From Heterodontus francisci (lineage: Eukaryota): a stretch of DNA of 64,000 bases. The first letter of the stretch is position 1, and each line of letters starts with the position of its first letter. The stretch is from positions 32,106,236 to 32,170,235 of the forward strand of contig NC_090404.1 in NCBI RefSeq assembly GCF_036365525.1. The letters are read 5' to 3'. Below, piece by piece: positions 417 through 61,678 of the stretch. The notes below the pieces were generated by a model, which searched no databases, was not told the DNA's origin, and worked only from the letters and a program-made list of their open reading frames with translations. A program made the position numbers and the translations under genes.

Positions 417-486
417 CTGGAACCCCGATAACAGCAAGGATTGGATAGTAAATGGCAAATACCAGACCTTTTGGTGCAACGTGCAT
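417..486 (-). CDS. Exon 1 of GPR139-like class A GPCR gene A (exon 2 lies off the left edge of the window)
   Basis: 70-nt exon MHVAPKGLVFAIYYPILAVIGVP+G followed by a GT donor (CCAG|gtaaaa); same length and phase as exon 1 of the two complete paralogs. Confidence 0.85.
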
Positions 487-536: not shown

Positions 537-640
537 ATTTATACCTGAAATCAGGCTCCAGGGATATAATTAGGTGGTTTGATCTATTGCATCAATCACA
601 CTAATTGAAACAAACAGATTCGTGCAGCTGCTGCCAGGAT
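537..640 (-). promoter_or_regulatory. Conserved GPCR promoter of gene A: TAATTA + TCCCTGGAG + TATA box
   Basis: Minus strand reads cctaattatatccctggagcctgatttcaggTATAAAT about 50 nt upstream of the ATG; conserved in all three paralogs. Confidence 0.7.
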
Positions 641-989: not shown

Positions 990-1450
990 CGACTTCAGTG
1001 CAGCTGACTGTGCATTCCTTGTGCTGATGTCGAGGACAGCACGAATACTTTCAGTGTGCATAGGTGCAGTTGATCATGTTTCCATTTTGTGCAGAAATGA
1101 ACATGTTCAGCACGATTGTCTTCAGTACGGTTACCTTCAGTGGGTGCAGGCCCAGTTGAGCAGAGCTACACTTAGCTTGGACTGATCCAGGTCGGGGAGT
1201 TATATGCATTGTGTAGAGGTCCAGTTCAGCACGGTTACAGTCAGTGTAGTCTGATACAGTTCAGCATGATTACTTTCGGTGCACAGGACAAGTTCTGCAC
1301 GGTGACATTCAGATCAACTGGTACACTTACCATGGATACATTTATTGTCCTGTTCAGCATGGTTACATTCAAAGTGCACAGCTTCTGTTCAGCATGGTTA
1401 CTCTCAGTGTGGACTGGAACAGTTCAATGCAGTAACTATCAATGTTGATA
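990..1450. repeat. Degenerate ~30-35 bp satellite upstream of gene A (resumes at 3314-3400 after a CR1 insertion)
   Basis: Recurring gttcagca(c/t)ggttac..tcagtgt motif; same array at 9420-10020, 17585-18480 and 55490-56370. Confidence 0.75.
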
Positions 1451-1454
1451 ACTC

Positions 1455-3313
1455 TCAATGCCTTTGGATAAAGGAGAATCCTAAAAGATTCTGTAAGTAT
1501 ATTACGAGTAACAGGGTAGCTAGGAAGAGAGTAGGTCTCCTGAAGGATCAGTGTGGCAATCTATGCATGGAGCCACGGGTAATGGGCGAGGTCTTAAATG
1601 AATACTTCTCATCTGTAATTACCGTGGAGAAGGTCATGGAAGCTAGTGAGTTCAAGGGATGGAACAGCGATACCCTGGAGCATATCAACATTACAAAGCA
1701 GGATGTGTTGGAGGTTTTAAAGTGCATTAAGATGGATAAATCCCCAGGGCCTGACCAGGTGTATCCCAGGTTGCTATGGGAAGCAAGGCAGGAGATTGTT
1801 GGGGCCCTGGCAGAGATTTTTATATCATCGTTAGCCACGGGTGAGGTACTGGAAGACTGGAGGATAGCTAATGTTGTGCCTTTATTTAAGAAGGGCAGCA
1901 GGGATAAGCCAGGGAACTATAGGCCGGTGAGCCTTACATCAGTGGTGGAAATGTTACTGGAAGAGATTCTGAGAGACAGGATTTATATGCATTTGGAAAG
2001 GCATGGTCTGATTAGGGGTAGACAGCATGGCTCTGTGTATGGGAAATCATGTCTCACGAATTTGAGTTTTTCGAGGAGGTTACCAAGAGGATTGACGATT
2101 GCAGGGCGATGGACGTTGTCTACATGGACTTTAGCAAGGCCTTTGACAAGGTCCTGCATGGGTAGGCTGGTCTTGAAGTTTCGAACACATGGGATCCAGG
2201 ATGAGCTAGCCAATTGGTTGTAAAATTGGCTTGGTGATAGGAGGCAGAGGGTGGTAGTGGAGGGTTGCTTTTCAGATTGGAGGTCTGTGACCAGTGGTGT
2301 GCCGCAGGGATCTGTGCTGGGCCCTCTGTTGTTGTCATATATATTAATGACTTGGATGTGAATGTAGGGGGCATGATTAGTAAGTTTTCAGATGACACCA
2401 AAATTGGTGGTATAGTGGACAGTAAAGAAGGTTGTCTAAGGTTACAACATGATATAGATCAACTGGGAAAGTGGGCAAGGGATTGGCAAATGGAATTTAA
2501 TGCAGCCAAGTGCGAAGTGATGCATTTTGGGAAGTTAAACCAAGGCAGGACATATACAGTGAATGGCAGGGCCCTGGGGATTGTTCTTGAGCAGCGAGAC
2601 CTTGGGGTGCAAGTACATAGTTCCCTGAATGTGGCAACACAGGTAGACAGGGTGGTGAAGAAGGCGTATGGCACACTTGCCTTCATGGGCCGAGGCACTG
2701 AGTACAAGAGTTGGGGCGTCATGCTACAGTTGTACATAACATTGGTTAGACCGCATTTGGAGTACTGTGAGCAGTTCTGGTCGCCGCACTATAGGAAAGA
2801 TGTGATTAGGCTAGAAAGGGTGCAGAAAAGATTCACAAGGATGTTGCCTGGATTGGAGGGCTTGAGTTATAAAGAGAGATTGGATAGGCTGGGTCTGTTT
2901 TCCCTGGAGCGACAGAGGCTGAGAGTGGTCATGATAGAGGTATATAAAATTATGAGAGGCATAGGTAGGGTAGAAAGCCAGAGTCTGTTTCCCATGGTAG
3001 CGGTGACTAAAACTAGAGGGCATAGATTTAAGGTGAGAGGGAGGAGGTTTAAAGTGGATCAAAGGGGTAAATTTTTCACACAAAGAATAGTGGGTATCTG
3101 GAATGAGCTGCCAGAGGAGGTGGTGGAGGCACGAACAGTAGCAACATTTAAGAGGCATCTGGACAGGTAATTGAATGAGTAAGTCATAGAGGGTTATGGA
3201 ATTAATGTAGGCTGGTGTGATTAGTATAGCTAGGCATTATGGTCGGCATGGACGCGGTGGGCCAAAGGGCCTGTTTCTATGCTGTACGACTCTATGAATC
3301 TATGACTCTATGA
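1455..3313 (+). mobile_element. CR1 LINE, 5'-truncated, RT region with frameshifts
   Basis: ORFs 1345-2223 and 2265-3170 contain KSPGPD, PGNYRPVSLTS, SKFSDDTK and LERVQKRFTRM; 3' tail of actctatg-like repeats. Confidence 0.95.
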
Positions 3314-5050: not shown

Positions 5051-5247
5051 AGTTGGGATGGAAATTAATAAGTGCCGTCAGATCACCTGGTAAGTCGGGC
5101 AATATTTTTGCCTAGACAAATGCTGTCACTTCAGGACCAACTGGTTCATGGTCTCCCTGCTGTTTTATGGAGCTGGCCCATGAAGATCAACATATTACTT
5201 CTTCTGGGAGCGTATTCTATACTTTCTCCTCTTTATTTCTCTGGCAG

Positions 5248-5900
5248 TTAATTTAGTGTAAGTTGTGATTCTGTCCTGAGGAAGGTGTGGACTTTCCATA
5301 TCTATCACTCAGTTCCTGGTTTCCATGCAATGACAGGTCTCCTGGTCATTATCATCGTCATGATAGCGTCCTGGCGATTACTCACGTGTGCAATCTCAGG
5401 ATTAGGTTAATTATGCATCCAGAAATACGACTATTTGATTAACAGCCACTATCACATCTGATCGATTTGTAGTCATCTGATATCAAAAGTTGAAAAGAAA
5501 ATATTGCACAGAGAAAACGGTGGCCCTGGTTACACGAAAGACTTGTCTGTACTTTGGGCTGTTTAATTAACATCTCATGGTGTTTAATGTATGAAGCGTT
5601 CTACATAACTGACACTATCAAGTGGAATTGCAGACCTGAAATTTATCCGTTTTACTTCATCAATGATTTCAGCTTTCTCATGGAATTAACTTATTTTAAC
5701 CCCATTCTTTCTGATTCGTATTCTCAATTCACTGACCTTCAGACTCACTCTCACTGGCAATAAAGCACGGAGCAGATTCAGCCCCCCACCCCCACTCCAG
5801 AGTAATGGGCAGAGTCAGAGTGACACAATGATGGAGATCCAGACTCTTTGTCATCTCGGGCTGTTTCATCCTGATGTGGATGATATCCATCTGCAGCAAC
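5248..5900 (+). pseudogene. GPR139-like GPCR pseudogene (exon 2 remnant)
   Basis: After a polypyrimidine/cag acceptor: NLV*VVILS*GRCGLS.SIT, then TSDRFVVI*YQKLKRKYCTEKT, SNGQSQSD and ISGCFIL; homologous to the intact exons 2 but with stops and frameshifts. Confidence 0.85.
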
Positions 5901-7094
5901 CTTTATTTGATTCTGTTCGTCTTTATATATTGTAGGAGATTTGAAATGGAGTAGAAGTTTTCCACAGCTTCAGGACTTGAATCAATTGACTGTTGTGGAC
6001 ATTACTCACCACACGACCACAAGTGAGAACGTCACGTGTGAGCTGGTGGGAGTAATTATTCGGATGGAGCCTGACAGCTACTGGTGTGATGAACACGATG
6101 ATGCATCAATTCGTATGCTGGTGTTGTTTCAATTCATTGTATTGGTAATACTAATTTATTGTGGACGGCATGTCTGGAAACAAGGACTATAGGAAATCGT
6201 GAACTCAATAACAACATACCCAAATAACCATAAGGAATCGTATTGTATGACTTCACTGAATATTCATGTTGAATTGTGTAACATGAGCTCCTTAAAGAAT
6301 AAATCTGATTCTGTGGTTGTTACAACTGATGTACCAAGAGAAGGCACCCTGCCTAAATGGATTGTTTTCTGCGTGTCCATCGTGTTTCATCGATGGAAGG
6401 ATGCCAACCAATAAACACAACTGATAGCTGGAAAGATCAGTTTTTCCTGGTGGCAGCTCACACTAATTGACATCAATAACTAACCCTGCTCAGTCACTGT
6501 CATGCGCAAAAATGTAAATAATTGATCCCACAACAGCTGATATTCAGATAAACGAAGCTCTCAGGGGGACGAGAATCGGCAATGGGCCAACGTATAGCTG
6601 AAGAGTGTTCTCTGGAAGGAAGGTGATCTGTTGATAACATATATATTTATTAAACTCAATAATATATAGAATATATATGTAGATATCACTGTAATCTAAT
6701 TAACTGGCTTGTTGCTAGTGCATCTACAAAATCTCTGAATTATAAATTGCAAATGCAATTTACTTTATTTAGCATAATTGAATCTTCCAGCAGAGAAGGA
6801 AATAATTTGCCCTGTCGTGCATGTGTCGGCTCTTTAACTGAGCTATTCAATTCAGCCCCAAAACCCAACTTTTTTCCCCGATAACCCTGAAAATTAGTTC
6901 TCTTCCAGCGCACATCCCGTTGCTTTTGAAAGTTCCCATGGAATCTAATTCCACCAACCTTTTTGGTGCTGTGTGCCAGAACATACCAAATTGCCTACTT
7001 TTGCATCAATCCATGTTTGTCTGTTTATCGATATAACCAATATAATATACAATTTAGGAGCGAATCTGCAACAGAAATCGAACCTGGTGTGAAC

Positions 7095-8539: not shown

Positions 8540-10080
8540 CCGTTATCGGCTCCAGTACTGGGGAAAGAGGGAGCTGTGTCATTGGGACGAGGCCCACTTA
8601 AACTGAGCTGGGAACAATGTCCAGGCGAATCCAATAACTAAGATTATAGATGGATAAGATAACAAATTGGGGAGGCTTAAAGTGATAGGAATTTATCAAT
8701 GTAAATTGAAAAGTCAAGGGTACCGAGCAGTGAAGTGATTTGGTTGAAGTTAAGCAGAATGTGTTAGGAAGCGACAGAGAGTTAAATGCTAATATTGCAT
8801 CAGTAAATAAGGTAAAATCAGGGGAAAATGGCAGAATTTTAAAATTAAAAACCCTTTATCTGAATGCCCAGAGGATTTCTAGCAAGATAGATGCATTAAT
8901 GGCATAAATAGAGATAAATGGCTTGCTCTAATAGAATTTTTGAGAAGTGGTTTCATGGATACCAAGGTTGGGAAAAAATATTTCAGTGAACTTGACATTT
9001 CGCAAAGACAGACAAAATTAAAAATAAGGTAGGGCAGCCTTCATAATAACGGATCACATAAGGACTGTAGTAAGGAAGGATCTTGTCCAGAAAGAGTAGG
9101 AAATAAAATCAGCATGGGTAGAGAAGTGAAATAACAAGGAGAAGCAAGACATGTGAGAGAAGTTTATAGGCCTCCTAGTAGCAGCTGTACTGTTGGATAT
9201 TGTGTAATCAAAGGCAATCAGGGTGGACAACAAATGTGTGACTTGCCAGCGATGCACATCAAGACATAAAAGGATCTTGTAACAAAGGTTGATATTCAAC
9301 GGCCGAAATTTAACTGCACCAGCCATATGAATACCATGGCTACAAGAGCAGGCCAGAGCCTGGGATGTCTGTGGCACATAACACACCTCATTCCAATAAG
9401 ACTGTCCACAGCGCATGCAACCTCACTTAACTGGACAACTGCACATTAAATGTAAGCATGCTGAACTGGGTCTGTCCACACTGAATATTGTCATGCAGAC
9501 CTGGACCAGTCCACAGTAAGTATCACCATGCTAATTGTGCCTGCCTCTACCGAACCCAACTGTACTGAACTTGACCAGTCAGCACTTAATGCAAGCATGT
9601 TGCTTTGGACGTTTGAACAATGAGAGGTAGCATGCACAACTGGACCTATTCATCTGGAATATAACTAGGCTGAACCCATCAACATCGAAAATAACCGTGC
9701 TGAACTGAACCAGTGCACCCAGAACATGACTGTGCTGAACTAAACCTGGGCACACAGATTCTCACCATGCTGAACTTGACTCTCCGCACTACATGTACCC
9801 ACGCCAACCTTGAGCAGTCCACGCAAAATGCACATGTGCTCAACTGGACATGTCTCCACTGAATATAACCGTACTGAACTTGGCCATCAATACTAATCAC
9901 AACAGAGCTGAATTGGACCTTTCCACACAAAACATAAACGTGCACAACTCACCCTTATGCACACTGAAAGTACCGTGCTGACATAGACCAGTCCACATTG
10001 AATACAGTCAGCTGCGTTGAAGTGGATGCACCCCCTTAGAGGGATTTGTAGTCAGGTGAATATGACCCAGGAGCACACGG
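8540..10080 (+). repeat. Orphan copy of the GPCR upstream module (CR1 5' remnants + LINE fragment + satellite)
   Basis: Colinear with 16720-18535 and, inverted, with 55440-57230, including the same chimeric junctions. Confidence 0.8.
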
Positions 10081-10089
10081 TTCAGCATA

Positions 10090-17584: not shown

Positions 17585-18480
17585 CCACACCGAATGCAAC
17601 CTCACTTAGCTGGATCTCTGTACACTAAATGCAATCATGCTGAACTGGATCAGTCCACACTGAATGCAGCTGTGCGAAGTCTGAACATTTCTACAATAAA
17701 TATGACTGATAAACTGGACCTCTCCACGCTGAAACTAACTGTGCAGTACCAGACCTCAGCAGGCTAACAGTAATCGTGCTCAACTACCCATCTGTACACT
17801 CGATATAAACATGCTGAGTTGGCCAAAATCACATTGGCAGTAACGGCGATGAATTGGGCCTGTCCACATTCAATGGAATCTGGCGAACTGAAGCTGGCCT
17901 CTGAATGTAACAATACAGAACTGGATCTGTCTACTCTGAATGTGAGTGTGCTGAACTGGAACTTCAGACACTTAATATTACCGTGCATACCTGGCCAATC
18001 AACTCTAAATATCACCGAACTAATTGCACTTGCTTCTACCGAATGCAACTGTACTGCAATTGACCAGTCAACATTGAATGCAACCATGTTGGATCGTACT
18101 TTTCAACACTGAGAATTCGCGTGCACAGCTGGATCTATGTAATGAATGTAAACGGGCTGAACCGGTTCACACTGAGAGTAACTGTGCTGAACTAAACCTC
18201 TGCACAGTTATTGTGGGAGTACTGAACCTGACCTCTCCATATTGCATATAAACGCGCGTCGACCTCGACCAGTCCACACTAAATGTAAATATAATCAACT
18301 GGACTTGTCTTCACTGAATATAACCATACCAAACTTGACAATCAATAGTGAAGGCAACCGTGCTGAACTGGACGTTTCCATGCAAAACTGAAATGTGCAA
18401 GACTGCACTTATACACATTAATAGTGCAGTGCTAACCTAGACCAGTCCACGCTGAATACTATCAACTGCACTGAAGTGGA
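17585..18480. repeat. Degenerate ~30-35 bp satellite upstream of gene B
   Basis: Recurring gtgctgaactgga..tccacactgaatg. Confidence 0.75.
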
Positions 18481-18795
18481 TATACTATCTAAGAGGGATT
18501 TGGGGTTAAATGGATGTGACTCGGGATCACACGGTGTGGAGCTGAATAGCGATCAGGAGATTGACATTTACTATATTTTCCTTCAGGACCAGAATATACC
18601 TTGTGCTGTGAGCAGCTAGCTCAGCCCTAAAGGGTTTAAACCCGAGGATTCACTTTCACCACTGCAACCACCGATTACTCATTTCATTATCATAACTGTA
18701 ACAAACATCATTTTGTAATATCTGGGTATTTCACTTTAGAACCGTGTTCAATCCTTTCAAAAACATTCCATTCTATCAAAACAAAAACACGAGTC

Positions 18796-18895
18796 TGGCA
18801 GCAGATGCACTAATCTGTTTGTTTCAATTCGTGTAATTAACGTAAAAGATCAAAATATCTAATTATCTCCCTGGAGCCTGACATCAGGTATAAAT
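18796..18895 (+). promoter_or_regulatory. Conserved GPCR promoter of gene B: TAATTA + TCCCTGGAG + TATAAAT
   Basis: atctaattatctccctggagcctgacatcaggTATAAAT (TATA at 18889-18895), about 50 nt before the ATG. Confidence 0.7.
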
Positions 18896-18945
18896 ATTAC
18901 AAGCTTTGAGTGCAGTTTAGAGCGTGCTCAGAGCTTCTGACAAAA

Positions 18946-19015
18946 ATGCACGGATCAGTAAAAGGTCTGGTGTTTGCCATTTACTATCCCATCCTTGCAG
19001 CTATCGGGATTCCAG
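18946..19015 (+). CDS. GPR139-like class A GPCR gene B, exon 1
   Basis: MHGSVKGLVFAIYYPILAAIGIP+G, donor CCAG|gtaac; phase-1 intron joins in frame to 22467. Confidence 0.9.
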
Positions 19016-20443: not shown

Positions 20444-20775
20444 CAGAGTAAATATAATTCTATGGTATTATTGACACGGTTACTGTGGGTGAATTATCAC
20501 ACTGTTATTATGCTGTAAATGTAGTTTTTTGTGTAATTGATAGTGTTACTTTGGGTGAATTGCCACACTGCCAACATGCTGTAAATGAGGTTCCATTGTG
20601 TTGCTGACACGGTTGTTCTGGGTGAATTATCACACTTACCACGCTGTAAATGTAGTTCTATTGTGTTATTGATACTGTTACTTAGGGTCAATTATCATAT
20701 TGTTATCACGATGAAAATGTAGCTCTATTGCATTATTGAAAATTACTGTGGGTGAGCTATTACACTGCCACAATT

Positions 20776-21102: not shown

Positions 21103-22466
21103 TAACAAGTGTTTTTGACCCTGTTACTGTGGGTGAATGATCACACTGTTATCACGGTGCAAATGTAGTTCTACTATATTATTGACACTGTTACTGTGGG
21201 TGAATTACCACACGGTAATCACAGTGTAATTGTAGTTCTATTGTGTTTTGACGCTGTTACTCAGGATGATTTATTACTGTCACCACAGTGTACAAGTTCT
21301 ACGGTATTCATGGTATTGACAGCGACTGCTACGTTTTATAAGTGATTTACTGATTAGAATTATTCAACAATTAAATAATTCTTGACTGAATTTAATGAGT
21401 GAAATTATTGAAGGAAAATTATTAGTCTGCCACTTGTTCACAGAAATATAAGCTATGTGGCAAGTAGCCGTTTTATGAATGAATCTGTACTTACCCTAAA
21501 ATCACAGCGCACAGTGATTTTGATGGCAGACTTTAACTCCTATTGCTTCAGCCTGGCTCTCCTCTCCACATGAGCTGCTGCCAACTGCTCCACACTGTGC
21601 ACAATGGATCGAATGTGTCTTCTGCTCCAAGCCCCTGGCAATGTCCCGGACATTTCCTATCTTCAATTGTTTCTCCATATTTTGTTTAACTGGTGGTGTC
21701 TCTCGCATCTGAGTCAAAAAGCTTTAATTTCAGTACCAACTACTGGGCTAAGCTGACCATCTATGCTGACAGCTCAGCGCACTGAGAAATGGTTGCATTG
21801 CAGGAGGGATGAGACCTCATCGCCTGCCAGTTCCACTGATGCAGGTCGACACAGAATTTCCCAGGGGACTAACAGGAGAAACTGTTTGAGTTATCATTGT
21901 GTCTTCAACAACAGAGTGATGAAACATTTATTGTCCATTTGGTTCTGTCTGAGAAATGTTTCCAGCAAGCTGACTGTCGAATTTACCAACAATTAATCAT
22001 TTTGCAGCAATTATTTGGGTCCTCAGCAGGACATAATCTATTTTAAATGCAAGTTTTTCCTACCTTCCTGTTCTTTTTTACTTTTATTGTCCGTTATTGG
22101 ATTATTTACTCTCTTCAATATGTTCTAGAATATGTTATTGAAGTTACTTTTCCTATCTGTTTGCTGTTCCTGTTTTGGAGTCAATGGGTTTCCGATCCCT
22201 TCTTGTTCTCTCTTATGCTCGATTGCATTATTTTATATTCCTATGTTATTGTCCTGTCTGATTTTCTAACCCAAATTATTTAAAACCCATAAACATGCGC
22301 CCAGATGTTAAGCGATAATTTTCCACTCAGTATCACGTGTTAGAGAATTTTACTCAGGATTCTGTAAAACTGATTTTTTTGACTCGTACCAGGAATTTTC
22401 CTGTTCTAGCTCTTTCACAAACATACACTCTTTCTCTTCCTCTGACTCTCTCTGTCTCTATTACAG

Positions 22467-23374
22467 CTAACCTGGCAGTGATTGTGATTCTGTGCCGAAG
22501 AAGGTGTGGCCTCTCCAGTTGCATCACTTATTACCTGACGTCCATGGCAGTGACGGATCTCCTAGTCATGATCACTACTGTGATATTAAACCGAATTGTT
22601 GGTATTTATTTCCCTGGCAGTTTCATGTTTATCACACCAGTATGCAGTCTCCGTATTGCCCTAAACTATGCGATCATAGACTGTTCTGTCTGGGTAACGG
22701 TCGCTTTCACATTTGATCGATTTATGGCAATTTGTTGCCAGAAGTTGAAAATAAAATACTGCACTGAGAAAACGGCAGCTCGTGTGATAGGAACAGTCTG
22801 CACACTGAGTTGCTTAATAAATACCTTCCGATATTTTCAGTTTGAACCTGTGTATATAATTAACAATGTATCCTGGTTCTGCAGCATAAAATTAATATTT
22901 TATACTTCACCAGCATGGGCGGCATATGACTGGATTCACCAGATTTTAACCCCTTGTCTCCCATTCATTCTGATTTTACTGTTCAATGCTCTGACTGTCA
23001 GAGACATTCTAGTGGCCAGTAAAGCCCGCAAGAGACTCACGGTCAACAACAATGGAGAGAATCGGAGTGACCCAGAGATGGAGAAGCGGAGAAACTCCAT
23101 GGTTTTACTCTTATGCATCTCAGGAAGCTTTATCCTGCTGTATTTGCTACTTCTTATAAACTTCCTTTATGTCCGAATTGCGAAATTCAATTATTTTTCC
23201 GGTTCTAATTTCGATCAGTCAAATTTTATTCTCGACCAAAGCGGATATATGCTTCAGCTTCTGAGTTCCAGTATCAATCCATTTATTTATGCAGGGACCC
23301 AGAGAAAATTCAGAGAGGAGTTAAAGAATGGAGTGAAATATCCACTGAGTCTGATTGCTAAATTGTTTAAATGA
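22467..23374 (+). CDS. GPR139-like class A GPCR gene B, exon 2 (spliced product 325 aa)
   Basis: Acceptor ttacag|CT; ANL (TM1), MAVTDLL (TM2), FTFDRFMAICC (DRY-like), LPF (TM5), NPFIY (TM7); stop TGA at 23372-23374. Confidence 0.93.
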
Positions 23375-25600: not shown

Positions 25601-25609
25601 GTTAAACAC

Positions 25610-25985
25610 TGTGGCTGGGTTCAGTTCTACAGTCAATGGTTCCTCTCCTTCTCCACCTCTGAAGGTGCTGGCTCTGACTTGGTTCAGTTCTACACTCACC
25701 GGTTACCTCCCTCTCCTCTCCTGAAAGTGTTGATTCTGACTGAGTTCAGTTCTACTCACACTCGTTCCCTTCTCTCTTCACCCCTGAAGGTGCTGACTCT
25801 GACTGAGTTCAGTTCTCCTCTCACTCGTTCCCTTCTCTCTTCACCCCTGAAGGTGCTGACTCTGACTGAGTTCAGTTCGACACTCATTCGTTCCCCTCCT
25901 TCTCCTCTTTGAAAGTGCTGACTCTAGTTGGGTTCGGTTGGACAATCACTGGTTCCACTACCTCTCCTCCTCTGGAGGTTTTGAC
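25610..25985. repeat. 63-bp tandem repeat (~6 copies)
   Basis: cccctgaaggtgctgactctgactgagttcagttct... with period 63 (25781 to 25844). Confidence 0.85.
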
Positions 25986-29510: not shown

Positions 29511-31642
29511 TCTGGTGAAAGTGAATTGGATACAGCTACGTGAAGGAAAATCAGTGACAAATCAGTGGGAGGCATTCAAAAACGAGATACTACAGGCACA
29601 GTATAGGCATGCCCCACAAAGATAAAGGGTGGCACTGCCCAATCAATAGCCCCCTAGTTATCTAGAAGCTTACAGGGTAAGTTAAAGCATAAAAAAAGCT
29701 TATGATGATCATAAAAATCTTAATACTTTAGAAAGCCGAGAGGAAGACAGAAAATGCAGGGGTGAAGCAAAAGAGGAAATTAGAAAAGCAAAGAGAAGAC
29801 ATGAATAATTATTGGCAGGTAATATCAAAGAAAATCCGAAGATGCTTTATCAGTACATTAAGAAAAAGAGGATAACTAAGGAAAGGGTAAGGCCTGTCAG
29901 ACATGTACAGGGGAACTTATGTGTGGATGCAAAAAATGTTGGCAGTGTTCTTAATGAATTTTTGTCTCTGTCTTCACAAAGGGGAGCGTTCATATTACAT
30001 TGTAGTTAGAGAGGAGGAGTGTGAAATATTAGATACAATAAGCATAATGAGAGAAGAAGTACTAGAGGGTCTGTCATCCTTGAAAGTGGATAAATCGCCA
30101 GGGCTGGATGGATTGCATCTCAGGTTGTTAAAGGAAGCAAGGGATGAAATAGTGGATACGCTGAGGATCATCTTCAAATCATCAGTAGATACAAGAGAGG
30201 TACCAGACGATTTTAAGTCTATGAACGTTGTACTATTGTTTAAAAAGGGTGCGAGGGATAGGCCAAATAATTATAGACTGGTCAGCCTGACCTCGGTGGT
30301 GGGTAAATTGTGAGAATCTATTCTGAGGGACAGGATAAACTGCTACTTAGAAAGGCATGATTAATCAGGGATAGTCAACATGGATTTCTTAAGGGAAGGT
30401 CATGTATTACTAACTTAATTGAGGTTTTTTGAGTAAGTAACAAGAAGGATTGATGAGGGCCGTGCAGAGGATGTGGTCTACATGGATTGTAGTAAGGCAT
30501 TTGACAAGATCTCACACGGCAGACTGGTCAGTATAAAGAAAGCTGATGGGGTGCAGGGGAATGTGGTAGGTTGGATCCAGAATTGGCTCGGGGACAGGAA
30601 ACAAAATGCAGTAGTCGACGGATGTTTTTGTGTGTGGAAAGCTGTTTCCAATGGCGTTCCACAGAGCTCAGTGTTTGTGGTATATATTAATGATTTGGGC
30701 ATAAATATGGGAGGCATGATTGGAAAATTTGCTGATGACATAAAAATTGGTCATGTAGCTGATAGTGACGTGGATAGCAGTAGACTCCAAAAGATATCAA
30801 TGGTTTGTTGATTGGGTGGAAAAGTGGCAAATGGAATTCAATCTAGATAAGTTATGCCTTTAGGGAGGGCAAATAAAGCCGGGTAACCCATCATGTGTGG
30901 GAGGATATTGAGAGGGGCAGAAGAGGTGAGATACCTTGGTGCATATGTCCGCAGGTCCTTGAAGATGTCAGGATAGGTAGATAGAATGATAAAGATATCA
31001 TATGTAATGCTATCTTTTTGGCCGCGGTATAGAATTCAAAAGCAGGGAAGTAATGATGGAACTGTATAAAACACTGGTTCGCCACAGTTGGAGTATTGTG
31101 TACAGTTCTGGTCACCACATTACAGAAATGATATTATTGCTCGGGCGAGAGTACAGCGGAGATTTACAAGAATGTAGCCAGGGCTCGGAAGTTGCAGCTA
31201 GAGGAAAGATTGTATAGGCTAGGGTTGTTTTCCTTTGCACAGAAGAGAAGAGGCTGAGGGGTGACTTAATTGAGGTGTACCAAATTATGAGAGGCATGGA
31301 TAGAGTAGACAGGAAGGACCTGTTTCCTCTAGCAGAGAGATCAATTACCAGGGGGCACAGATTTAAGGTGATTGGTAGAAGGATTAGTGCGGACATGAGG
31401 AATCACATTTTCACCCAGAGGCTGGTGGATGTCTGGAATTAGCTGCCAGGAATGTTGGTGGAGGCAGAAACCCTCAATCCTTTTAAAAGGTACCTGAATA
31501 TGCACCTGAAGTGCTGTAACTGGCAAGGCTATGGACCAGGTGCTGGAAGGTGGGATTAGATTGGGCGGTTAGCTTTTTATTCAGCCAGCAAGGACACGAT
31601 GGGCTGAATGGCCTCCGCTGTGCCGTAATTTTTCTATGGTTC
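29510..31642 (+). mobile_element. CR1 LINE, 5'-truncated, disrupted
   Basis: IKENPKMLYQY, KSPGLDG, NYRLVSLTSVVGK, KFADDIK; tail ttctatggttct. Confidence 0.9.
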
Positions 31643-32930: not shown

Positions 32931-33944
32931 AAGAGGATGCAGAGAGCTAGAGTGGAAAGCAAAACCAGAGTTTCTGCCATTACATAATGTGAATCTGCGT
33001 GGATGCAAGAGCTGTCACTTGTTACCTGCACCAGTGGTCACAAGAATGATGTTAACTTTTATGGAACATGTGTAAGAATGTACACACGGACATACACACG
33101 CACACACACACATATTTACATATACAGTACCACCATTGTTGCTTTCGCTGGAGTGAATCAGAATAACTCTCAAATTCGCTAAGGATGACAGTCTACAAAT
33201 GCATTTTGCAATTCTTGTCAAGATGTCCGAGTTCCTATTGTTACTGACAGTCTTTATCGGCGCTGGTATCCCTGAGCAGCACCATCTCCAGACACAATTA
33301 TTGTAGGCAGCCTTCCTCATTAACTTCCTACATTTAAACTTGCAGAAATCCAAACATTCTGCTTATAATTGACTTCAGATTTACCACTGGTTCAGATTTA
33401 CCATGAGCTCCGTCACGGAGCAACATTGTAATCTAATGAATACATCGAAGTCTCTATTCCAGTCCTGCATGCTCTCCAATATTTGCCAGGTTGAACTCGA
33501 ATAGTCAGTTGCATGAAGTACTTGGTGGACTGTTGCAGACTTCATATGTTTGTATTTGAAGCATTATTATAATATTTATCATGATTTGCCAATGTTGACC
33601 CTCGAAGTAATTTTCTTGATGATTTTGGATGTAGAAAATGATTTGGCTTATTATGGTCAGGAGCAGGGTTATACAACATGCAGCCAGCAGGCCTGAATTT
33701 GGGCCGCCAAAGATTTCTATCCGGCCCGTGCTTGTAAACTGTTCCTGGGGCTGTTCCTCATCCTTACTGTGACTGGAGCTGAGAAACTTCCCTTTGTGAG
33801 TCCGTCTCTTAAACTATTGCGCTGTCCATTTCACAGGTGACAGCTGCTGACATCGAGAACAGTCATTTCCTATCTGACTATTTAAGAAAAACGCCCGCCG
33901 GAAAACCCCGAGTCTGTTGGGAAATGGCTGCTCCCCATGTCACA

Positions 33945-35530
33945 GAGTCATAGTTTATACAGCACAGAAACAGACCCTTCGGCCTATCGTGCCTATGCCA
34001 GCCATCAAGCACCAAACTATTCTAATCCCATTTTAAAGCACTTGGCCCTTCGCTTTGTATGCTATGGCATTTCACGTGCTCATCTAAATACTTCTTAAAT
34101 GTTGTGAGGGTTCCTACCTCTACCACCTCCTCTGGCAGTGCGTTCCAGATTCCAACCTCCCTCTGACTGTTTTTTCCCTCAAATCCCCTCCAAACATCCG
34201 ACCCCTTAGCGTAAATCTATGCCCCCTGGTTTTTAACCCCTATGCTAAGGCAAAACATTTCTTCCTATCTAACCTTTCAATTGCTCTCATAATTTTGTAT
34301 ACCTGAATCATGTCGCCCTTCAGTCTTCTCGGCGCTAAGGGAAAAAAAACGAGCCTTTTCAGTCTCTCTTCATAGCTGAAATGCTACAGCCCAGGCAACA
34401 TCCTGGTGAATCTCCTCTGCAGCCTCTCCATTGCAATCACATCCTTCCTATAATGTGATAACCAGAACAGTACACAGTACTCCAGCTGTGACCTAACTAG
34501 CACATTATACAGCTCCATCATAACCTCCCTGCTCTTATATTCTGTGCCTCAGCTAATAAAGGCATGTATCCCATATGCCTAACTAACCACCTTATCTACC
34601 TGTGCTGCTGCTTTCAATTGACAAGTATACCAAGGTCCCTCTTATTCTCTGTACTTCATAGCGTCTTACCATCCATTGTATATTCCCTTGCCTTCTCAGG
34701 ATTAAATTCCATTTGTCACTGATTTGCCAACTTACCAGCCCATCAATATCGTCCTGTAATCTAAGGCTTTCCTCCTCACTAATTACAACACCACAAATGT
34801 TCGTGTCATCTGTGAACTTACTGATCATACCTCCTATATTCATGTCTACATCATTAATGTACACTACAAACAGCAAGGGTCCCAGCACCGATCCCTGCGG
34901 TACACCACTGGTCACAGGCTTCCACTCGCAAAAACAACCCTCGATCACCACCCTTTGCCTCCTGTCACTAAGCCAATTTTGGATCCAATTTGCCTAATTG
35001 CCCTGGATCCCATGGGCTCTTACCTTCTTAACCAATCTCCCGTGCGAGACCTTATCAAAAGCCTTAATGAATTCCATGTAGACTACATCAACTGCTTTAC
35101 CCTCATCTACACAACTAGTCACCTCCTTGAAAAATTAAATCAAGTTAGTTAGACACGATCTCCCCCGACAAAGCCATGCTGACTGTCCCTGATTAACCTC
35201 TGCCTGTCCGAGTGAAGATTAATCCTGTCCCTCAGAATTATTTTCCCAATAGTTTCCCTACCACTGATGTTAGACTCACCAGCTTGTAATTAGCTAGTCT
35301 ATCCCTGCTACCCTTCTTAAATATTAAATAATGGTACCAAATTAGCTGTCCTACAATCCTCTGATACCTCTCCTGTGGCCAGAGCGGATTTGAAAATTTG
35401 TGTCTGAGCCCCTGCTATTCCCGCCCCCTCCCCCCCGCCTCACATAACAGCCTGGCAGCCTGGGACAGATCTCATCTGGACCTGTGGAGTTAACCACTGC
35501 TAAGCCCGCTAAAATAATTAATTCTTCCTC
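33945..35530 (-). mobile_element. CR1 LINE, 5'-truncated
   Basis: ORF 34592-34951 [26 protein letters not shown]; tail at 33945. Confidence 0.9.
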
Positions 35531-37667: not shown

Positions 37668-38800
37668 ACGATGAAGTCACACGGGATCACAGGTGAGCTG
37701 GCAAGATGGATACAGAACTGGCTTGGTCATAGAAGACAGAGGGTATCAGTGGATGGGTGTTTTTTCTGAATGGAGGGATGTGACTAGTGGTGTTCCACAG
37801 GGATCAGTGCTGGGACCTTTGCTGTTTGTGGTATATATAAATGATTTGGAGGAAATGTAGCTGGTCTGATTAGTAAGTTTGTGGATGACACAAAGGTTGG
37901 TGGAGTTGCGGATAATGATAAGGATTCTCAGAGGATACAACAGGATATAGATCGGTTGGAGACTTGGGCGGAGAAATGGCAGATGGAGTTTAATCCGGAC
38001 AAATGTGAGGTATTGTATTTTGGAAGGTCTGATGCAGGTGGGAGGTATACAGTAAATGGCAGAACCCTTAGGAGTATTGACAGGCAGAGAGATCTGGGCG
38101 TACAGGTCCACAGGTCACTGAAAGTGGCAACGCAGGTGGATAAGGTAGTCAAGAAGGCATACAGCATGCTTGCCTTCATTGGTTGGGGCATAGAGTATAA
38201 AAATTGGCAAGTCATGTTGCAGCTGTACAGAACCTTAGTTAGGCCACACTTAGAATATTGCGTGTAATTCTGGTCGCCACATGACCAGAAGGTCGTGGAG
38301 GCTTTGGAGAGGGTACAGAGCAGGTTTCACAGGATGTTGCCTGGTCTGGGGGGCATTAGCTATGAGGAGAGGTTAGGCAAACTCGGATTATTTTCACTGG
38401 AACGACGGAGGTGGAGGGGCGACATGATAGAGGTTTACAAGGTTATGAGTGGCATGGACAGAGTGGATAGTCAGAAGCTTTTTCCCAGTGTGGAAGAGTC
38501 AGCTACTAGGGGACATAGGTTTAAGGTGCGAGGGGCAAAGTTTAGAGGGGATGTGCGAGGCAAGTGTTTTACACAGAGTGTGGTGAGTGCCTGGAACTTG
38601 CTGCCAGGGGAGGTGGTGGAAGCAGATACGATAGCGACGTTTAAGAGGCATCTTGACAAATATATGAATAGGAAAGGAATAGAGGGATATGGGCCCCAGA
38701 ATTGCAAAAGGTGTTAGTTTAGGCCGGCATCAGGATCGGCGCAGGCTTGGAGGGCCGAATGGCCTGTTCCTGTGCTGTACTGTTCTTTGTTCTTTGTTTG
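37668..38800 (+). mobile_element. Young CR1, 5'-truncated
   Basis: [36 protein letters not shown]; tail tgttctttgttctttg. Confidence 0.93.
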
Positions 38801-45342: not shown

Positions 45343-48300
45343 TTTTTTTTATCCATTCATGGGATGTGGGCGTCGCTGGCCAGGCCAGCATTTATTGCCC
45401 ATTCCTAATTGCCCTTGAGAAGATGGTGGTGAGCTGCCTTCTTGAACCGCTGCAGACCATGTGGGGTAGGTACACCCACAATGCTGTTCGGGAAGGGAGT
45501 TCCAGGATTTTGACCCAGCGAAAGTGAAGGAACGATGATAACGTTCCAAGTCAGGATGGTGTGTGACTTGGAGGGTAACTTGCAGGTGGTTGTGTTCCCA
45601 TGTATTTGCTGCCCATGTCCTTCTAGTTGGTAGAGGTCGCGGGTTTGGAAAATGCTGTTTAAGGAGCCTCGGGGCGTTGCAGCAATACATCTTGTAGATG
45701 GTACACACTGCTGCCACAGTGCGTCGGTGGTGGAGGGAGTGAATGTTTGTAGATGGGGTGCCAATCAAGCGGGCTGCTCTGGCCTGGATGGTGTCGAACT
45801 TCATGAGTCTTGTTGGAGCTGCACCCATCCAGGCAAGTGGACAGTATTCCAACACACTCCTGACTTGTGCCTTCTAGATGGTGTATGGCATTGGGCAGTC
45901 AGGAGGTGAGTTACTCGCCACAGGATTCCTAGCCTCTGACCTGCTCTTGTAGCTACTGTATTTATATGGCTACTCCCGTTCAGCTCCTGGTCAATGGTAG
46001 CCCCTAGGATGTTGATAGTGGGGGATTCAGCGATGGTAATGCCATTGAAATTCAAGGAGAGATGGTTAGATTCTCTCTTGTTGGAGATGGCCATTACCTG
46101 CCAATTGTGTGGCCCGAATGTTACTTGCCACTTCTCAGCCCAAGCCTGGATATTGTCCAAGTCTTGTTGCATTTCTACACGGACCACTTCTGTATCTGAG
46201 GAGTCAAGAATGGTGCTGAAGATTGTGCAATAATCAGCGAACATCCCCACTTCTGACCTTATGATTGAAGGAAGGTTATTGATGAAGCAGCTGAAAATGG
46301 CAGAGCCTAGGACACTACCATGAGGTACTGCTGCGGTGATGTCCTGGAACTCAGATAATTAACCTCCAACAACCACAACCATCTTCCTTTGTGTTAGGCA
46401 TGACTCCAACCAGTGGAGAGTTTTCCCCCTGATTCCCATTGACCTCAGTTTTGCTAGGGCTCCTTGATGCCATACTCGGTCAAATGCTGCCTTGATGTCA
46501 AGGGCAGTCACTCTCACCTCACCTCTTGAGTTCAGCTCTTTTGTCCATGTTTCAAACAAGGCTGCAATGAGGTCAGGAGCTGAGTGGTCCTGGCGGAACC
46601 CAAAATGAGCGCCACTGAGCATGTTAATGCTAAGCAAGTGCTGCTTAATGGCACCGTTGACGACACCTTCCATCACTTTACTGATGATTGAGAGTGGGCT
46701 GATGGGGAGGTAATTGACTGGGTTTGACTTGCTTTGCTTTTTGTGTGCAGGGCACACCTGGGCAATTTTCCACGTTGCTCGATAGATGTCAGTGTTGTAG
46801 CTGTTATGGAACAGCTTGGCTAGGGGCGAGGCCCGTTCTAGAGCATAGGTCTTCAGTACTATTGCCGGAATATTGTCAGGGCCCAGGCCTTTGCAGTATC
46901 CAGTGCCTTCAGTCGTTTCTCTGATATCATGTGGCTTGAATAAAATTGGCTGAAGTCTGGCATCTATGATGCTGGGGACTTCAGGAGGAGGCCGAGATAG
47001 ATCATCAACTCGGCACTTCTGGCTGAAGATTGTTGCAAATGCTTCAGCCTTATCTTTCGCACTCATGTGCTGGACTCCCCCATCAATGCGGATGGGAATA
47101 TTTAGGAGCCACCTCCTCCAGTACGTTGTTTAATTGTCCACCACCGTTCACGACTGGATGTGGCAGGACTGCAGAGCTTAGATCTGATCCGTTGGTCATG
47201 GGATCACTTAGCTCTGTCTATTGCGTGCTGTTTACGCACCTTGGCACGCAGATAGCCCTGTGTTGTAGCTTCACCAGGTTGACATCTCATTTTGAGGTAT
47301 GCCGGTGCTGCTCCTGGAATGCCACCCTGCACTCTTCATTGAACCAGGGTTGGTCTTCTGGCTTGATACTAATGGCAGAGTGGGGGATATGCTGGGCCAT
47401 GAGGTTACAGATTGTGTTTGAATACAATTCTGCTGCTGCTGATGGCCCACAGTGCCTCATGTATGCCCAGTTTTACATTGCTAGATCTGTTCGAAATCTA
47501 TCCCATTTAGCACGGTGGTAGTGCCACACAACACGAAGGACTGTATCCTCAATATGAAGGCGGGACTTCGTCTCCACAAGGACTGTGTAGTGGTCACTCC
47601 TACCATTACTGTCATGGACAGATGCATCTGCGGCAGGTAGATTGGTGAGGACGAGGTCAAGTATGTTTTCCCCTCTTGTTGGTTCCCTCACCACCTGCTG
47701 CCTACCCAGTCTAGCAGATATGTCCTTTAGGACTCAGCCAGCTCGGTCAGTAGTGGTGTTACCAAGCCACTCTTGGTGATGGACATTGAAGTCCCTCATG
47801 CAGAATACATTCTGTGCCCTTGCCAACCTCAGTGCTTCTTCCAAGTGCTGTTCAACGTGGAGGAGAACTGACTCATCAGCCGAGGAAGGGTGGTAGGTGG
47901 TAATCAGCAGGAGGTTTCCTTGTCCATATTTGACCTGATGCCATGTGCCCTCATGGGGTCCAGAGTCATTGTTGAGGACTCCCAGGGCAACTCCCTCCGT
48001 ACTGTATACCACTGTGCCACCACCTCTGCTGGGTCTGTCCCACCAGTGGGACAGAACATCCGCGGGGTTGGTGACGGCTGAGTTTGGGACATTGTCTGTC
48101 AGGTATGATTCCGTGAGTATGACTATGTCAGGCTGTTGCTTTACTAGTCTGTGGGACAGCTCTCCCAACTTTAGTACATGCGCCCTGATGTTAGTAAGGA
48201 GGACTTTGCAGGGTTGAAAGGGCTGGGTTTGCCGTTGTTGTTTCCGCTGCCTAGGTCGATGCAGGGTGGTCCGTCCGGTTTCATTACTTTTTATTGACTT

Positions 48301-48638
48301 CGTAGTGGTTAGATACAACTGAGTGGCTTGCGAGGCCATTTCAGAGGGCATGTAAGAGTCAATCACATTGCTGTGGGCTTGGAGTCACATGTAGGCAAGA
48401 CCAGGTAAGGACAGCAGATATCCTTCCCGAAAGAGCATTAGTGAACAAGATGGGTTTTTACAACAATCGACAATGGTTTCATGGCCATCATTCGACTAGC
48501 TTTTTAATTCCAGATTTATCAATTGAATTCAAAAACAACCTTTTGTTGTGGAGGGATTTGAACCCATGTTCCCAAAATAATACCCTGCAATTTTAGGTTG
48601 CTAGCCCAGTGACGATACCACTACGCCACCGCCTCCCC
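45343..48638 (-). mobile_element. Full-length ~3.3 kb non-LTR retrotransposon (APE + RT, jockey/CR1 group) with tRNA-like 5' head and poly(A) end
   Basis: PDIVILTESYL, DFNVHH, LDLVLTN..SDH (APE); NYLPISPLSIISKVME, DIKAAFDRVWH, FADYC (RT); A box 48618-48628 and B box 48554-48564. Confidence 0.9.
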
Positions 48639-51798: not shown

Positions 51799-52730
51799 TT
51801 ATGTTGGATTGCATTTTTTCCATTTTGAAAACAATGTAACAATTAGACGCAATGGATATGTCACCCCATTCTTTAACTCTTCTCTGAATTTTCTCTGGGT
51901 CCCTGCATAAATAAAAGGATTGACACAGGAACTCAACAGTTGAAGCATAAATCCCACTTCCTGCAGAATAAAATTTGATTGATTGAAATTGGAACCAGAA
52001 AAATAATTAAGTTTCGCAATTCGGACATAAAGGAAATTTATAAGAAATGGCAAATATAAAAGAATGAAACTGCCCGAGATGCAGAAAAGTAAAATGATGG
52101 ATTTTCTCCGGCTTTCCATCTCTGGATCACTCTGATTCTCTCCATTACTGTGGGCACGGAGTCTTCTGCGAGCTCTACTGGCCACAAGAATGTGTCTGAC
52201 GGTCAGAGCATTGAACAGTAAAATCAGAATGAATGGGAGACAAGCGGTAGAAATGGAACGAATCCAGTCATATGCGGTCCATACAGGTGACGTATAAAAT
52301 ATTAATTTTACATCGCAGAACCAGGGTATATCGTTAATTATATACAAAGGTTCATATATAAAATACCGAAAAGTATTTTTTAAACAGTTCACTGTGGCTA
52401 CGATTACTATCACCCAAGTTGCCGTTTTCTCAGTGCAGTACTTTACTTTCAGCTTCTGGCAACAAATGGCCATAAATCGATCAAAGGTGAAAGCAATTGT
52501 TACCCAGACAGAACAGTCTATGATCGCAAAGCTTAGGGCAGAACGGAGACTGCACACTGGTGTGATGGACAGGAAACTGTTTGGGAAATAAATAGCAGCA
52601 ATCCTGTTTAATATCACAACGGTGATGATGACCAGGAGATCTGTCACTGCCATGGACATCAGGTAGGAAGTGATACATCTTGAGAGACCGCATCGTCCTC
52701 GGGACAGGATCACAACCACAGCCAGGTTAG
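51799..52730 (-). CDS. GPR139-like class A GPCR gene C, exon 2 (spliced product 333 aa)
   Basis: Acceptor aatacag|CT; ANL, MAVTDLL, FTFDRFMAICC, CVNPFIY; clearly paralogous to gene B. Confidence 0.93.
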
Positions 52731-53520: not shown

Positions 53521-53934
53521 CAAGACATGCCAAAAAGTATACAAAATATGCAAAAAAGATTGAAGTTGAGAACAGTCCGGGACGTTATCAGGGGCTTGGA
53601 GCAGAAGGGACATTCAGAGTCAGTAGTGGTCACTGCAGAATAGTCAGCAGCAGCTAATGTGGAAGAGGAGAGCCGGGCTGAAGCAGTGCGAGTTGGAGAC
53701 TGAAAGTAGAAACACTGTGCTCTGTGTGTTTATGATAATTGCAGATTCAGTCATAAAACGGCCACTTGCTACATTGTTTTATATTGCTGTTAATACCTTG
53801 ATTGCTAGTAAATTCGTCAGGAATTACTTTATTGTTGAATCATTTCAATCAGCAAACCATTTGTGAAAATCAGATAGCCGCTCTCAATTTATTTGTACAG
53901 TAGACCTCTGTGTACACTTCGGTGACATTGATAA

Positions 53935-54440
53935 TTTATGCACAGTAACAGTCTCAATAGCACAATAGAACTCCATTTATAACGTGCTAAGAGTTGGATA
54001 ATTCATCCAGAGTAACGGTATCAATAACACTATAGATCTACATGCACGCCATGATAACAATGCGTGATAATATAACCACAATAAGTAGTTCAAAAAAGGA
54101 ATATAACTAATTTACACCGTAACAACAGTCTGATAATCTACCCACAGTAACACAGTCAATATAAATAAAACTGCATGTACACCATGATAAATGCGATAAT
54201 CTGCCTAGAATGGCAATAGAACTACATTTGCATCATGAAAACAGTGTGATAAGTTACCCACAGTAAGATGGTCATTAACACAATATGACTACATGTGCAC
54301 CATTACAACAGTGCGATGGTTCACCCACAGTAACAATGTCAAGAACAGAATAGAACTACATTTACACCATGATAACAGTGTGATAATTCTCCCACAGTAA
54401 CAATGTCAATAACACAGTATAACTGCATTTTTACCGTGAA
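53935..54440. repeat. 67-bp intronic minisatellite of gene C
   Basis: cccacagtaacaatgtc at 54324 and 54391 (period 67); reverse complement of the gene B array. Confidence 0.85.
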
Positions 54441-54931
54441 ACAGCACATGCAAAGGGACAAACTTATACAGTTGGAAGCGCTAAATTACATTTACAAACA
54501 GGAGAAATTGCACCAGTTAATAGGAAAATGATTCCACTGAAGAGGATAAATAGTGCTACCGAAGTAGAAGGTGTTGCTACAAAGCTGCAGAAATTACACT
54601 GTAATGTAAAGCAATGATATCAATAATGGAGAGAAATGGCACTTCTAAAAGGGAGAAATTAGAACATTAATGATGACAATTTATATCAGTAAATGAAATA
54701 CATTATATCAATAAAGTGGAGAAATAATACGGTTAAAGTGAAAAATGATACTGTGAAAGGTGAGAAATTAGAAAAATTGGAAGGAAGAAATTTTCCCATT
54801 AAAGTGAAGAAATTATCTTACTCAAGGGGAGAAAAGTTAGCCAAAACATGGAGACGCGATATTGGTAAATGAGAGCAGTGCCACAGCTAATCAATGATTT
54901 CCATAACTAATATCTGAGTAAACTCATTTAC

Positions 54932-55001
54932 CTGGAACCCCAATAGCTGCAAGGATGGGATAGTAAATGCCAAACACCAGTCCTTTGGCGGTTGCATGCA
55001 T
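54932..55001 (-). CDS. GPR139-like class A GPCR gene C, exon 1
   Basis: MHATAKGLVFGIYYPILAAIGVP+G, donor CCAG|gtaaat; 70 nt, phase 1, in frame with exon 2. Confidence 0.9.
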
Positions 55002-55051: not shown

Positions 55052-55155
55052 ATTTATACATGATGTCAGGCTCCATGGGATATAATTAGATGGTTTGATG
55101 CTTTACATTAATTGCACTAATTGAAACAAACAGATTAATGCAGCTGCTGCCAGGC
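55052..55155 (-). promoter_or_regulatory. Conserved GPCR promoter of gene C: TAATTA + TCCCATGGAG + TATAAAT
   Basis: Minus strand reads atctaattatatcccatggagcctgacatcatgTATAAAT; additional TAATTG sites upstream. Confidence 0.7.
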
Positions 55156-55489
55156 TCGTGTTTCTGTTTTGATGAAATGGGATGTCGTTCAAGGAATTTG
55201 ACATGGCTCTAATATGAAATACCCAGCGAGTACAAAATGATCCTAGTTGCAGTTAGTATAACAAAAAGTTTAATAAGCGGTTGCAACGGTGAAAGTGAAC
55301 ATTGTATATAAGAAATCCCTGGGTATAAAGCTTTAATGCTGAGTTAATTGCTCTCAGCATAGGGTATAACGTAGTAGATATATTCCGATCCTGAAGGAAC
55401 CTGCATGCATGTCCTCACTCCTGATCACTATTCAGCACCAGTCCGTGTGATCTTGGGTCATATGCACGTGACTCCAAATCCCTCTCGAC

Positions 55490-56370
55490 GGTACATCCAC
55501 TTCAACGCAGCTATTATATTTAGTGTCGACGACTCGAGGTCAACTTTTAGTTTTAGTGTGCATAGGTGCAAGTGTGCACGTTTATTTTTTAGCAGAAATG
55601 TCCAGTTCAGCACAGTTGCCTTCAGTATTGATGGGCAAGTTCTGTACCGTTATATTCAGTGGAGACATGTCCACCTTAGCACATTTATATTTAGTGTGGA
55701 CTGGGTGGAGCTCGGCACAGTTCTATGCAGGCCAGGTTCAGACCGCTCACGATCTGCGTTCACAGGTTTAGTTAGCACAGTTACCTTCAGGGTACAGAGG
55801 TTTAGTTCAGCAGTTGCTCTCAGTGTTAACAGATACAGCTTCGTTACATTCCACGTGCACAGATCCACGTGTGCACGCTAACTCCCAGTGTTGAAAAGTC
55901 CAATTCACCACGGTTGCATTCTGTGTTAGCTGGTCAAGTTCAGTAGAGACCAATTCAATTAGCACGGTGATATTTAGTGCATGCCAGTCGAGAACTGCAT
56001 GATGATATTCAGAGTCCAAAGTTTCACTTCAGCACACACGCTTTCAGAGTGGCCAGATCCAGTTCTGTACTGTTACTTTGAGTGAGGGCAGCTTCAATTT
56101 TGCACGGTTCCATTGAATGTGAGCAGGCCAAATTCAGCATGGTTACTGCCAATATGATCTTGCCCAGGTCAGCGTGCTTATATCTAGTTATGGCCAGTTG
56201 AACGCAGTTACTTCCAGTGTGCAAAAGTCCAGTACTGCACAGTTATTTTCTGTGTAACATTTATTTTAAAAACATTCTTTTTCTCACCGTTACTTTCAGT
56301 GTGGCCATTTTCAGTTCAGCAGATCTACATTTAGTGTGCAGAGATCCAGTCAAGTGAGCGTGCATCCAGT
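55490..56370. repeat. Degenerate ~30-35 bp satellite upstream of gene C
   Basis: Recurring gttcagcacagtt..ttcagtgtgg; inverted homolog of 17585-18480. Confidence 0.75.
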
Positions 56371-61200: not shown

Positions 61201-61678
61201 GTGCAGCTCTAACAACACTCAAGAGCTCGACACCATCCAGGACAAAGCAGGCCACTTGTTTGGCAACCCATCCACAAACATTCACTCCCTTCACTACCGA
61301 TGCACAGTGGCAGCAGTGTGTACCATCGACAAGATGTATTGCAGCAACACACCAAGGCTCCTGAGACAGCGCCTTACAAACCCGTGACCTCTACCACCTA
61401 GAAGGGCAAAAGCAGCAGATGCATGGGAACTTCACCACCTGCAAATTCCCCTCCAAACCGCGCACCATCCTGACTTGGAACTCTATCGTCGTTCTTTCAT
61501 TGTCGCTGGGTCATAATCCTGGAACGCCCTTCCTAACACAGCACTGTGGGTGTATATACCCTACATGGGCTGCAGCGGTTCAAGAGGCAGCTCACAACTA
61601 TCTTCTCAAGGGCAATTCGGGATGGGCAATAGATGCTGGCCTAGTCAGCGACTCCCACATCCCATAAACGAATAAAAT
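58289..61678 (+). mobile_element. Second full-length copy of the 3.3-kb tRNA-headed jockey/CR1-group LINE (more decayed)
   Basis: Starts at the same GGGGAGG as the 48638 copy; FSQKCRVDD, ALDIKTAF, GIFADDC; ends aataaaat. Confidence 0.9.
58958..59041. repeat. Perfect 38-bp inverted repeat with 8-nt loop
   Basis: tttgtctgttgttcggagaaaggttaaccttttgattg (58958-58995), loop tgcatttt, exact reverse complement at 59004-59041. Confidence 0.95.

Follow-up and report, generated by a model that had tools for sequence, protein, structure and literature searches.

The window, i.e., the whole 64,000-nt stretch of DNA that was analysed, contains three copies (A, B, and C) of a two-exon gene for a G-protein-coupled receptor (GPCR) of class A and one decayed remnant. 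Coding exon 1 of gene B (18946–19015, plus strand) comprises 23 codons and one further nucleotide, followed by a GT donor; splicing to coding exon 2 (22467–23374, plus strand) gives an intact class A 7TM receptor of 325 amino acids. Gene C is located on the minus strand, with coding exon 1 at 54932–55001 and coding exon 2 at 51799–52730. Its spliced product is identical to P0003 (333 amino acids), a horn shark (Heterodontus francisci) protein with the automatic name "probable G-protein coupled receptor 139". Gene A is represented by its promoter and coding exon 1 (417–486, minus strand); its exon 2 would fall outside the window. The remnant (5229–5909, plus strand) is an exon 2 of the same GPCR family with stops and frameshifts, for which no promoter or exon 1 was found in the window. 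The far-upstream portion of the unit also exists as an orphan copy (8548–10081, plus strand), which stops short of the core promoter. In the public model P0034, which includes exon 2 of gene B, the N terminus starts with residues matching a LINE frame (1306–2223) in place of the true exon 1.

The initial annotation had placed a composite motif, consisting of a homeodomain site and an O/E (EBF) site, beside the TATA box of all three GPCR promoters. This was borne out: the window holds exactly three matches to CTAATTAT[AC]TCCCA?TGGAG, one per promoter and each preceding TATAAAT. In gene B the motif (18859–18876, plus strand) is made up of a TAATTA homeodomain site (18860–18865), a spacer of 1 bp, and a degenerate EBF-like 10-mer (18867–18876), and it corresponds to the majority form of the family as seen in paralog contigs. 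The copy of gene A was located by pattern match at 556–573 (minus strand); that of gene C (55071–55089, minus strand) differs from the majority form in a substitution at 55081 and an additional base at 55076. The TATA box (TATAAAT) is invariant in the three genes and lies at 18889–18895 (plus strand) in B and, by pattern match, at 537–543 in A and 55052–55058 in C (both minus strand). The gap between the end of the motif and TATAAAT is 12 nt in all three genes, rather than the approximately 15 nt given originally, and the distance from the start of the TATA box to the ATG is 57 nt in each (ATG of gene A at 486–484). Transcription of gene B would start near 18919. Further TAATT(G/A) sites had also been noted upstream, and such sites are present, but none is common to all three genes. 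TAATTR is frequent in the window (120 observed, approximately 91 expected), and the upstream sites were rejected as independent evidence.

Several neighbouring elements were delimited in gene B, all on the plus strand. Between the motif and the TATA box lies an inverted repeat, CCTGA-CA-TCAGG (18877–18888), which is also the majority form in the loose-end consensus of the contigs and contains TGACATCA, presumably a CRE-like site. Upstream of the motif a conserved block (18796–18830) carries what we take to be an E-box (18802–18807), a forkhead-like TGTTTGT (18816–18822), and a homeodomain-like end. In this block 31 of the 35 columns are invariant in A, B, and C (p=8×10−5), so that its conservation is about that of the motif; it had not been mentioned in the initial annotation. 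A second TAATTA homeodomain site (18834–18839) reads CAATTA in C and is lost in A, and three-way comparison further revealed an invariant 12-nt block (18722–18733) to which no factor is assigned.

Conservation was compared across the three genes by counting three-way invariant columns, which amounted to 17/18 in the motif, 91/116 in the core promoter, and 444/777 in the flanks. Fisher tests against the flanks gave p=7×10−4 for the motif and p=5×10−6 for the core promoter, the windows having been picked after inspection; the difference in conservation between the motif and the remaining core promoter was not significant (p=0.06). The expectation that the motif be more conserved than the adjacent duplicated DNA thus holds for the three genes, and it holds for many paralog contigs as well. 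The proteins encoded by B and C share 252 of 325 residues (dS=0.40, dN/dS=0.33), and 74 of 105 four-fold sites are identical; judged by this divergence, B and C are old paralogs. The caveat that the shared motifs might merely reflect recent duplication was therefore not supported, given the invariance of the motif relative to the flanks and the dS between B and C.

A neutral origin of the motif, as a remnant of recent duplication or gene conversion, has in its favour that the entire 7.5-kb unit of B and C is homologous at approximately 73% and that other non-coding windows of the unit attain values of 0.83–0.85. It is nevertheless considered very improbable, because the paralogs are old, because contig depth has its peak over exon 1 and the core promoter, dropping upstream, and because the conserved blocks are separated by a linker and a 5′ leader whose pairwise identity (0.70–0.80) is near that of the flanks (0.65–0.74). 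Such patchy conservation is more readily understood if sites are under selection than if a conversion tract is involved. When the B/C unit was scanned with exons and an unaligned part of the intron excluded, the core promoter was the top 116-column non-coding window (0.888; next window 0.853; mean 0.734 over 4837 columns). From these comparisons, selection acts on the core promoter, which is common to a large elasmobranch clade of genes for orphan class A GPCRs.

Further paralogs were sampled by aligning contig pieces from two DNA runs of one sample (a single species) to the promoter of gene C at 80% likeness. The runs yielded 337 and 299 pieces, of which 149 and 140, respectively, were less than 90% alike. 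Depth, which was not taken as a measure of copy number, reached its maximum over the core promoter and over exon 1 at its 3′ end, declining upstream. Differences were evaluated from 40 of the 85 entries of the comparison, covering paralogs at least 80% alike. Among the differences listed, the only ones within 55052–55099 were specific to gene C, namely 55060, 55081 (35 and 31 contigs), and the omission of the base at 55076; no position of 55115–55132 was among them, and at least nine positions of the 50-nt leader differed between paralog contigs. The majority form of the contigs is that of gene B at 18859–18895, and the loose-end consensus reads alike. Across many paralogs of this one species, the upstream block, the homeodomain site, the EBF-like site (1 bp further on), and the TATA box (after another 12 bp) thus follow one another in constant order and at constant distances, with conservation above that of the flanks. 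At 54926–54977 (3′ end of exon 1 and splice donor) the paralog depth was several-fold above that of the promoter, so distant subfamilies may have other promoters; loose ends at exon 1 with other intron types likewise suggest that the promoter class described here covers part of a wider family.

The assignment to a GPCR family other than the olfactory receptors (ORs) was confirmed. Pfam returned only 7tm_1 for these receptors, with no OR family, and four OR hallmark peptide motifs occurred in 0 of 77 sequences. A protein search retrieved 2068 proteins at E≤0.001, distant GPCRs included; the best 120 of these comprised 87 horn shark clusters (64 on one record of 59.5 Mb) and 33 from other sharks, as counted by hand. 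After clustering at 50%, 118 representatives scored below 1×10−30, and ten mid-range representatives that were checked all came from sharks, skates, or rays. By sequence relationship the genes are part of an elasmobranch-wide GPCR expansion. The repertoire is large and clustered, and the decayed remnant in the window is a mark of birth-and-death evolution. At 28 pocket positions, numbered by hand, residue-class entropy was 0.81, compared with 0.47 at 49 other positions of the outer transmembrane region (p=0.005, for sequences that are related rather than independent). Variation in the pocket was high at 3.29, 3.32, 5.42, 5.43, and 6.51.

Phylogenetic analysis was carried out with 38 proteins chosen from 419 (LG+G4, two long outgroup branches, canonical GPR139 not among them). 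The shark expansion grouped with a salamander gene (100/99) and was separate from a low-copy vertebrate clade (100/99). From the position of the salamander gene, the family probably predates the split between cartilaginous and bony vertebrates. This gene (P0225, P0273, P0276) is highly conserved in three salamanders. Members of the low-copy clade (P0230, P0238, P0371, and relatives) are also named "probable GPCR 139" and come from sharks, bony fishes, coelacanth, amphibians, and turtles; mammals and birds were absent from the 120 matches listed.

Srw-type invertebrate receptor families have chemosensory roles. Among solved structures, GPR139 was the best match to a single sequence (E=1×10−9), and with the family profile GPR139 (E=7×10−13) scored no higher than the TRH receptor (E=1×10−13). 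Orthology to GPR139 was rejected, since these values indicate only distant kinship and true GPR139 orthologs are described as 70–96% identical (PMC7318219). The family resembles GPR139/GPR142 in its two-exon gene, which is also reported for GPR139 in that source, and GPR139 is the origin of the automatic name; the low-copy vertebrate clade and the salamander gene are, however, far closer to the shark family, and GPR139 is highly conserved whereas the shark family is massively expanded. An expansion of FMRFamide/sex-peptide-receptor-like (Srw-type) GPCRs has been described in snail (PMC11589774). Atlas neighbours of the shark family carry 7TM_GPCR_Srw in 17–74% of their members, but the shark family itself forms an independent vertebrate clade with Pfam 7tm_1 only. 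No earlier description of the expansion or of its promoter was found in the literature searched, which consisted mostly of non-subscription papers (including PMC11979771, PMC8455134, PMC6504862, and PMC10620051), and both are apparently new to the literature.

The motif was compared with the composite of the mouse Greek Islands, in which an Lhx2 site and an Ebf site are described as lying 1 bp apart (PMC11643329), the Ebf part allowing runs of pyrimidines and of purines with a fixed spacing (PMC5608512). The copy of gene B fits the published 17-position pattern at 16 positions and those of A and C at 15; none of the three copies fits exactly, B being mismatched at position 7 and A and C at positions 7 and 8. 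The published pattern is loose (143 exact matches in the window) and was rejected as a significance test. A stricter pattern of the shape of the motif had no occurrence in 60 simulated windows, a circular result of little weight, the pattern having been written after the sites had been seen. The arrangement of homeodomain site, 1 bp, and EBF-type 10-mer, with pyrimidines and purines kept, is in register in B and A and offset by one extra base in C. The EBF half has two mismatches in eight positions and is not significant alone, 342 sites in the window matching TCCCNNGGGA equally well or better; relative to the V$NOLF core there are two mismatches, or three in the copy of gene C. Judging from published primers and a mutation (PMC7804114), the functional composite of the J element would have CCC-N-GG as far from TAATT as it is in A and B, which suggests that the one-base spacer is the register of the composite and not a damaged site.

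The shark motif thus shares with the Greek Island composite (Monahan 2017, PMC5608512; Iwata 2021, PMC7804114) a TAATT-type site, a 1-bp spacer, a degenerate EBF site of a pyrimidine run and a purine run, and an association with a clustered 7TM multigene family. It differs in having T rather than a purine at position 7 and in consisting of putative binding sites on a non-OR family; the mouse element is an intergenic OR enhancer element, whereas the shark motif is located in the core promoter, 12 nt from the TATA box. According to the published analyses, the mouse composite is over-represented in OR enhancers and under-represented in OR promoters (PMC5608512, PMC12547500), and TAAR enhancers likewise carry it (PMC8213717). 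OR promoters are reported to be enriched in separate O/E and homeodomain sites, with TATA boxes in a subset (PMC3247239), and O/E-like sites were found in 39 of the 39 V1R promoters studied (PMC3247230). The premise of the initial annotation that TAAT-core and O/E sites are a hallmark of OR promoters consequently holds for the two sites separately but not for the composite. In common with mouse OR and V1R promoters (PMC3247239, PMC3247230, PMC12547500), the shark genes have O/E-like and homeodomain sites within approximately 100 bp of the presumed start, together with a TATA box, as a subset of the ORs has, and a broad conserved promoter is shared between family members, as in V1R subfamilies. 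In contrast to these mouse genes, the sites are juxtaposed at a fixed position, coding exon 1 begins 57 nt after the TATA box, and an intron interrupts the coding sequence. With a weak EBF half and no exact fit, and with the mouse composite depleted from promoters, the shark element resembles the composite in a place where the mouse does not use it; by its sequence it is not a strict member of the Lhx2/Ebf composite class. The proposal that a non-OR family may use olfactory regulatory logic is supported in part: the Lhx2/Ebf spacing register speaks for it, with caveats in the mismatches of the EBF half, the lack of an exact fit, and the enhancer character of the mouse composite.

In our analysis the best reading, held at about even odds, is that olfactory neurons express these genes, the tissue being inferred, and that the genes form a chemosensory receptor family so far unrecognised. 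A homeodomain protein of the Lhx2/Emx2 type would bind next to a dimer of EBF (O/E), as the two do on mouse OR enhancers, immediately adjacent to the TATA complex and aided by factors on the upstream block. Family genes would then be switched on, probably sparsely, in olfactory sensory neurons (microvillous in sharks), and members would be tuned to different water-borne ligands; that these are water-soluble amino acids or peptides is a guess from distant relatives. The context favours an olfactory role in that cartilaginous fishes are reported to have 20–62 known olfactory receptor genes and yet many neurons (PMC10869828). Counting against it, the composite was defined in OR-expressing neurons, and the catshark nose is described as lacking ciliated neurons and OR expression (PMC10116579); GPR139, the nearest named relative, is described as CNS-restricted (PMC7318219); and the diversity of the pocket also fits immune receptors. 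No GPCR was among the top 50 catshark brain-and-nose genes given in PMC11979771, an absence of little weight because known receptors are missing there too. No RNA run was listed for exon 2 of gene C. Two of three candidate RNA runs, aligned to the gene C region, gave no piece (X5) and one piece at 55135–55192, upstream of the TATA box (X6), and have no bearing on expression either way. The more far-reaching claim, that sharks and rays have a fifth olfactory family of hundreds of GPR139-distant class A GPCRs, independent of OR, TAAR, V1R, and V2R and with the composite in each core promoter, is put forward tentatively, at slightly less than even odds.

Other tissues and factors were weighed against the olfactory reading. 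The homeodomain and EBF logic may be real but serve other neurons or sensory cells (brain/habenula, spinal or cranial ganglia, taste or solitary chemosensory cells, ampullae), which we regard as unlikely. Many kinds of neurons contain EBF and LIM-homeodomain factors, and the conserved E-box fits neural bHLH factors generally, both in keeping with such an assignment; on the other hand, a large clustered repertoire with variable pockets is, to our knowledge, unusual for endogenous-ligand brain receptors, and the family is far from GPR139 in the profile search. Expression of GPR139 in habenula, striatum, thalamus, and hypothalamus (PMC7318219) and the reported occurrence of composite motifs outside the Greek Islands (PMC11643329) speak for other neurons again.

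An immune family, in which the B-cell network would read the EBF site, the E-box, and the forkhead site and the pockets would be diversified for sensing microbial peptides, is a decidedly improbable alternative, although all three types of site do occur within the conserved core. The B-cell network includes EBF1, E2A, and FoxO1; we know of no obvious partner in it for the TAATTA that stands in the Lhx2/Ebf register and is the best-conserved sequence next to the EBF-like site. The partly LINE-like N terminus of the public model of gene B hints weakly that transcript support is lacking from the tissues that are commonly sequenced and so argues against immune expression, whereas the report of a conserved OR gene specific to immune cells (PMC13113109) argues for it. 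At least as improbable is a selected promoter site bound by factors other than Lhx2 and EBF, the olfactory likeness being coincidental. The weak EBF match, the departure from the published pattern at position 7 in all three copies, and the many factor pairs that could fit some conserved 18-mer are in line with it; the homeodomain core, the 1-bp spacing, and the CCC-N-GG offset all concur with the mouse composite, and the absence of a pattern of this shape from the simulated windows also points away from coincidence, within the circularity stated above.

The sequence hints that this little-studied shark receptor family, with a switch like that of mouse smell receptors, may comprise overlooked smell receptors. 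The small number of receptor genes in the large olfactory organs of cartilaginous fishes has so far been explained as a sensitivity trade-off (PMC10869828, PMC10116579), to which a large family with a smell-type promoter grammar is a testable alternative. A fifth family, if true, would overturn the view that these fishes smell with only 20–62 receptors and would date the composite grammar, as a promoter element, to the jawed-vertebrate ancestor; an enhancer composite built into every promoter would also bear on the evolution of one-receptor choice. Even with expression in another tissue, an apparently undescribed, pocket-diverse GPCR expansion masked by an automatic name merits description.

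The remainder of the window is rich in repeats. A degenerate 67-bp minisatellite occurs in the introns of B and C (20448–20767, 21113–21261, and 53929–54444), and a degenerate repeat region of approximately 35-bp units is found in the orphan block as well as upstream of every promoter (approximate bounds 17900–18540, 9430–10080, 950–1430, and 55440–56030). The intergenic space is filled with decayed LINE-like reverse-transcriptase fragments (1306–3306, 29891–31560, 33939–35412, 37678–38796, 45347–48411, and 58294–61677), which we take from their translations to be of the LINE class. A 63-bp tandem repeat of approximately five copies is present at 25608–25985.
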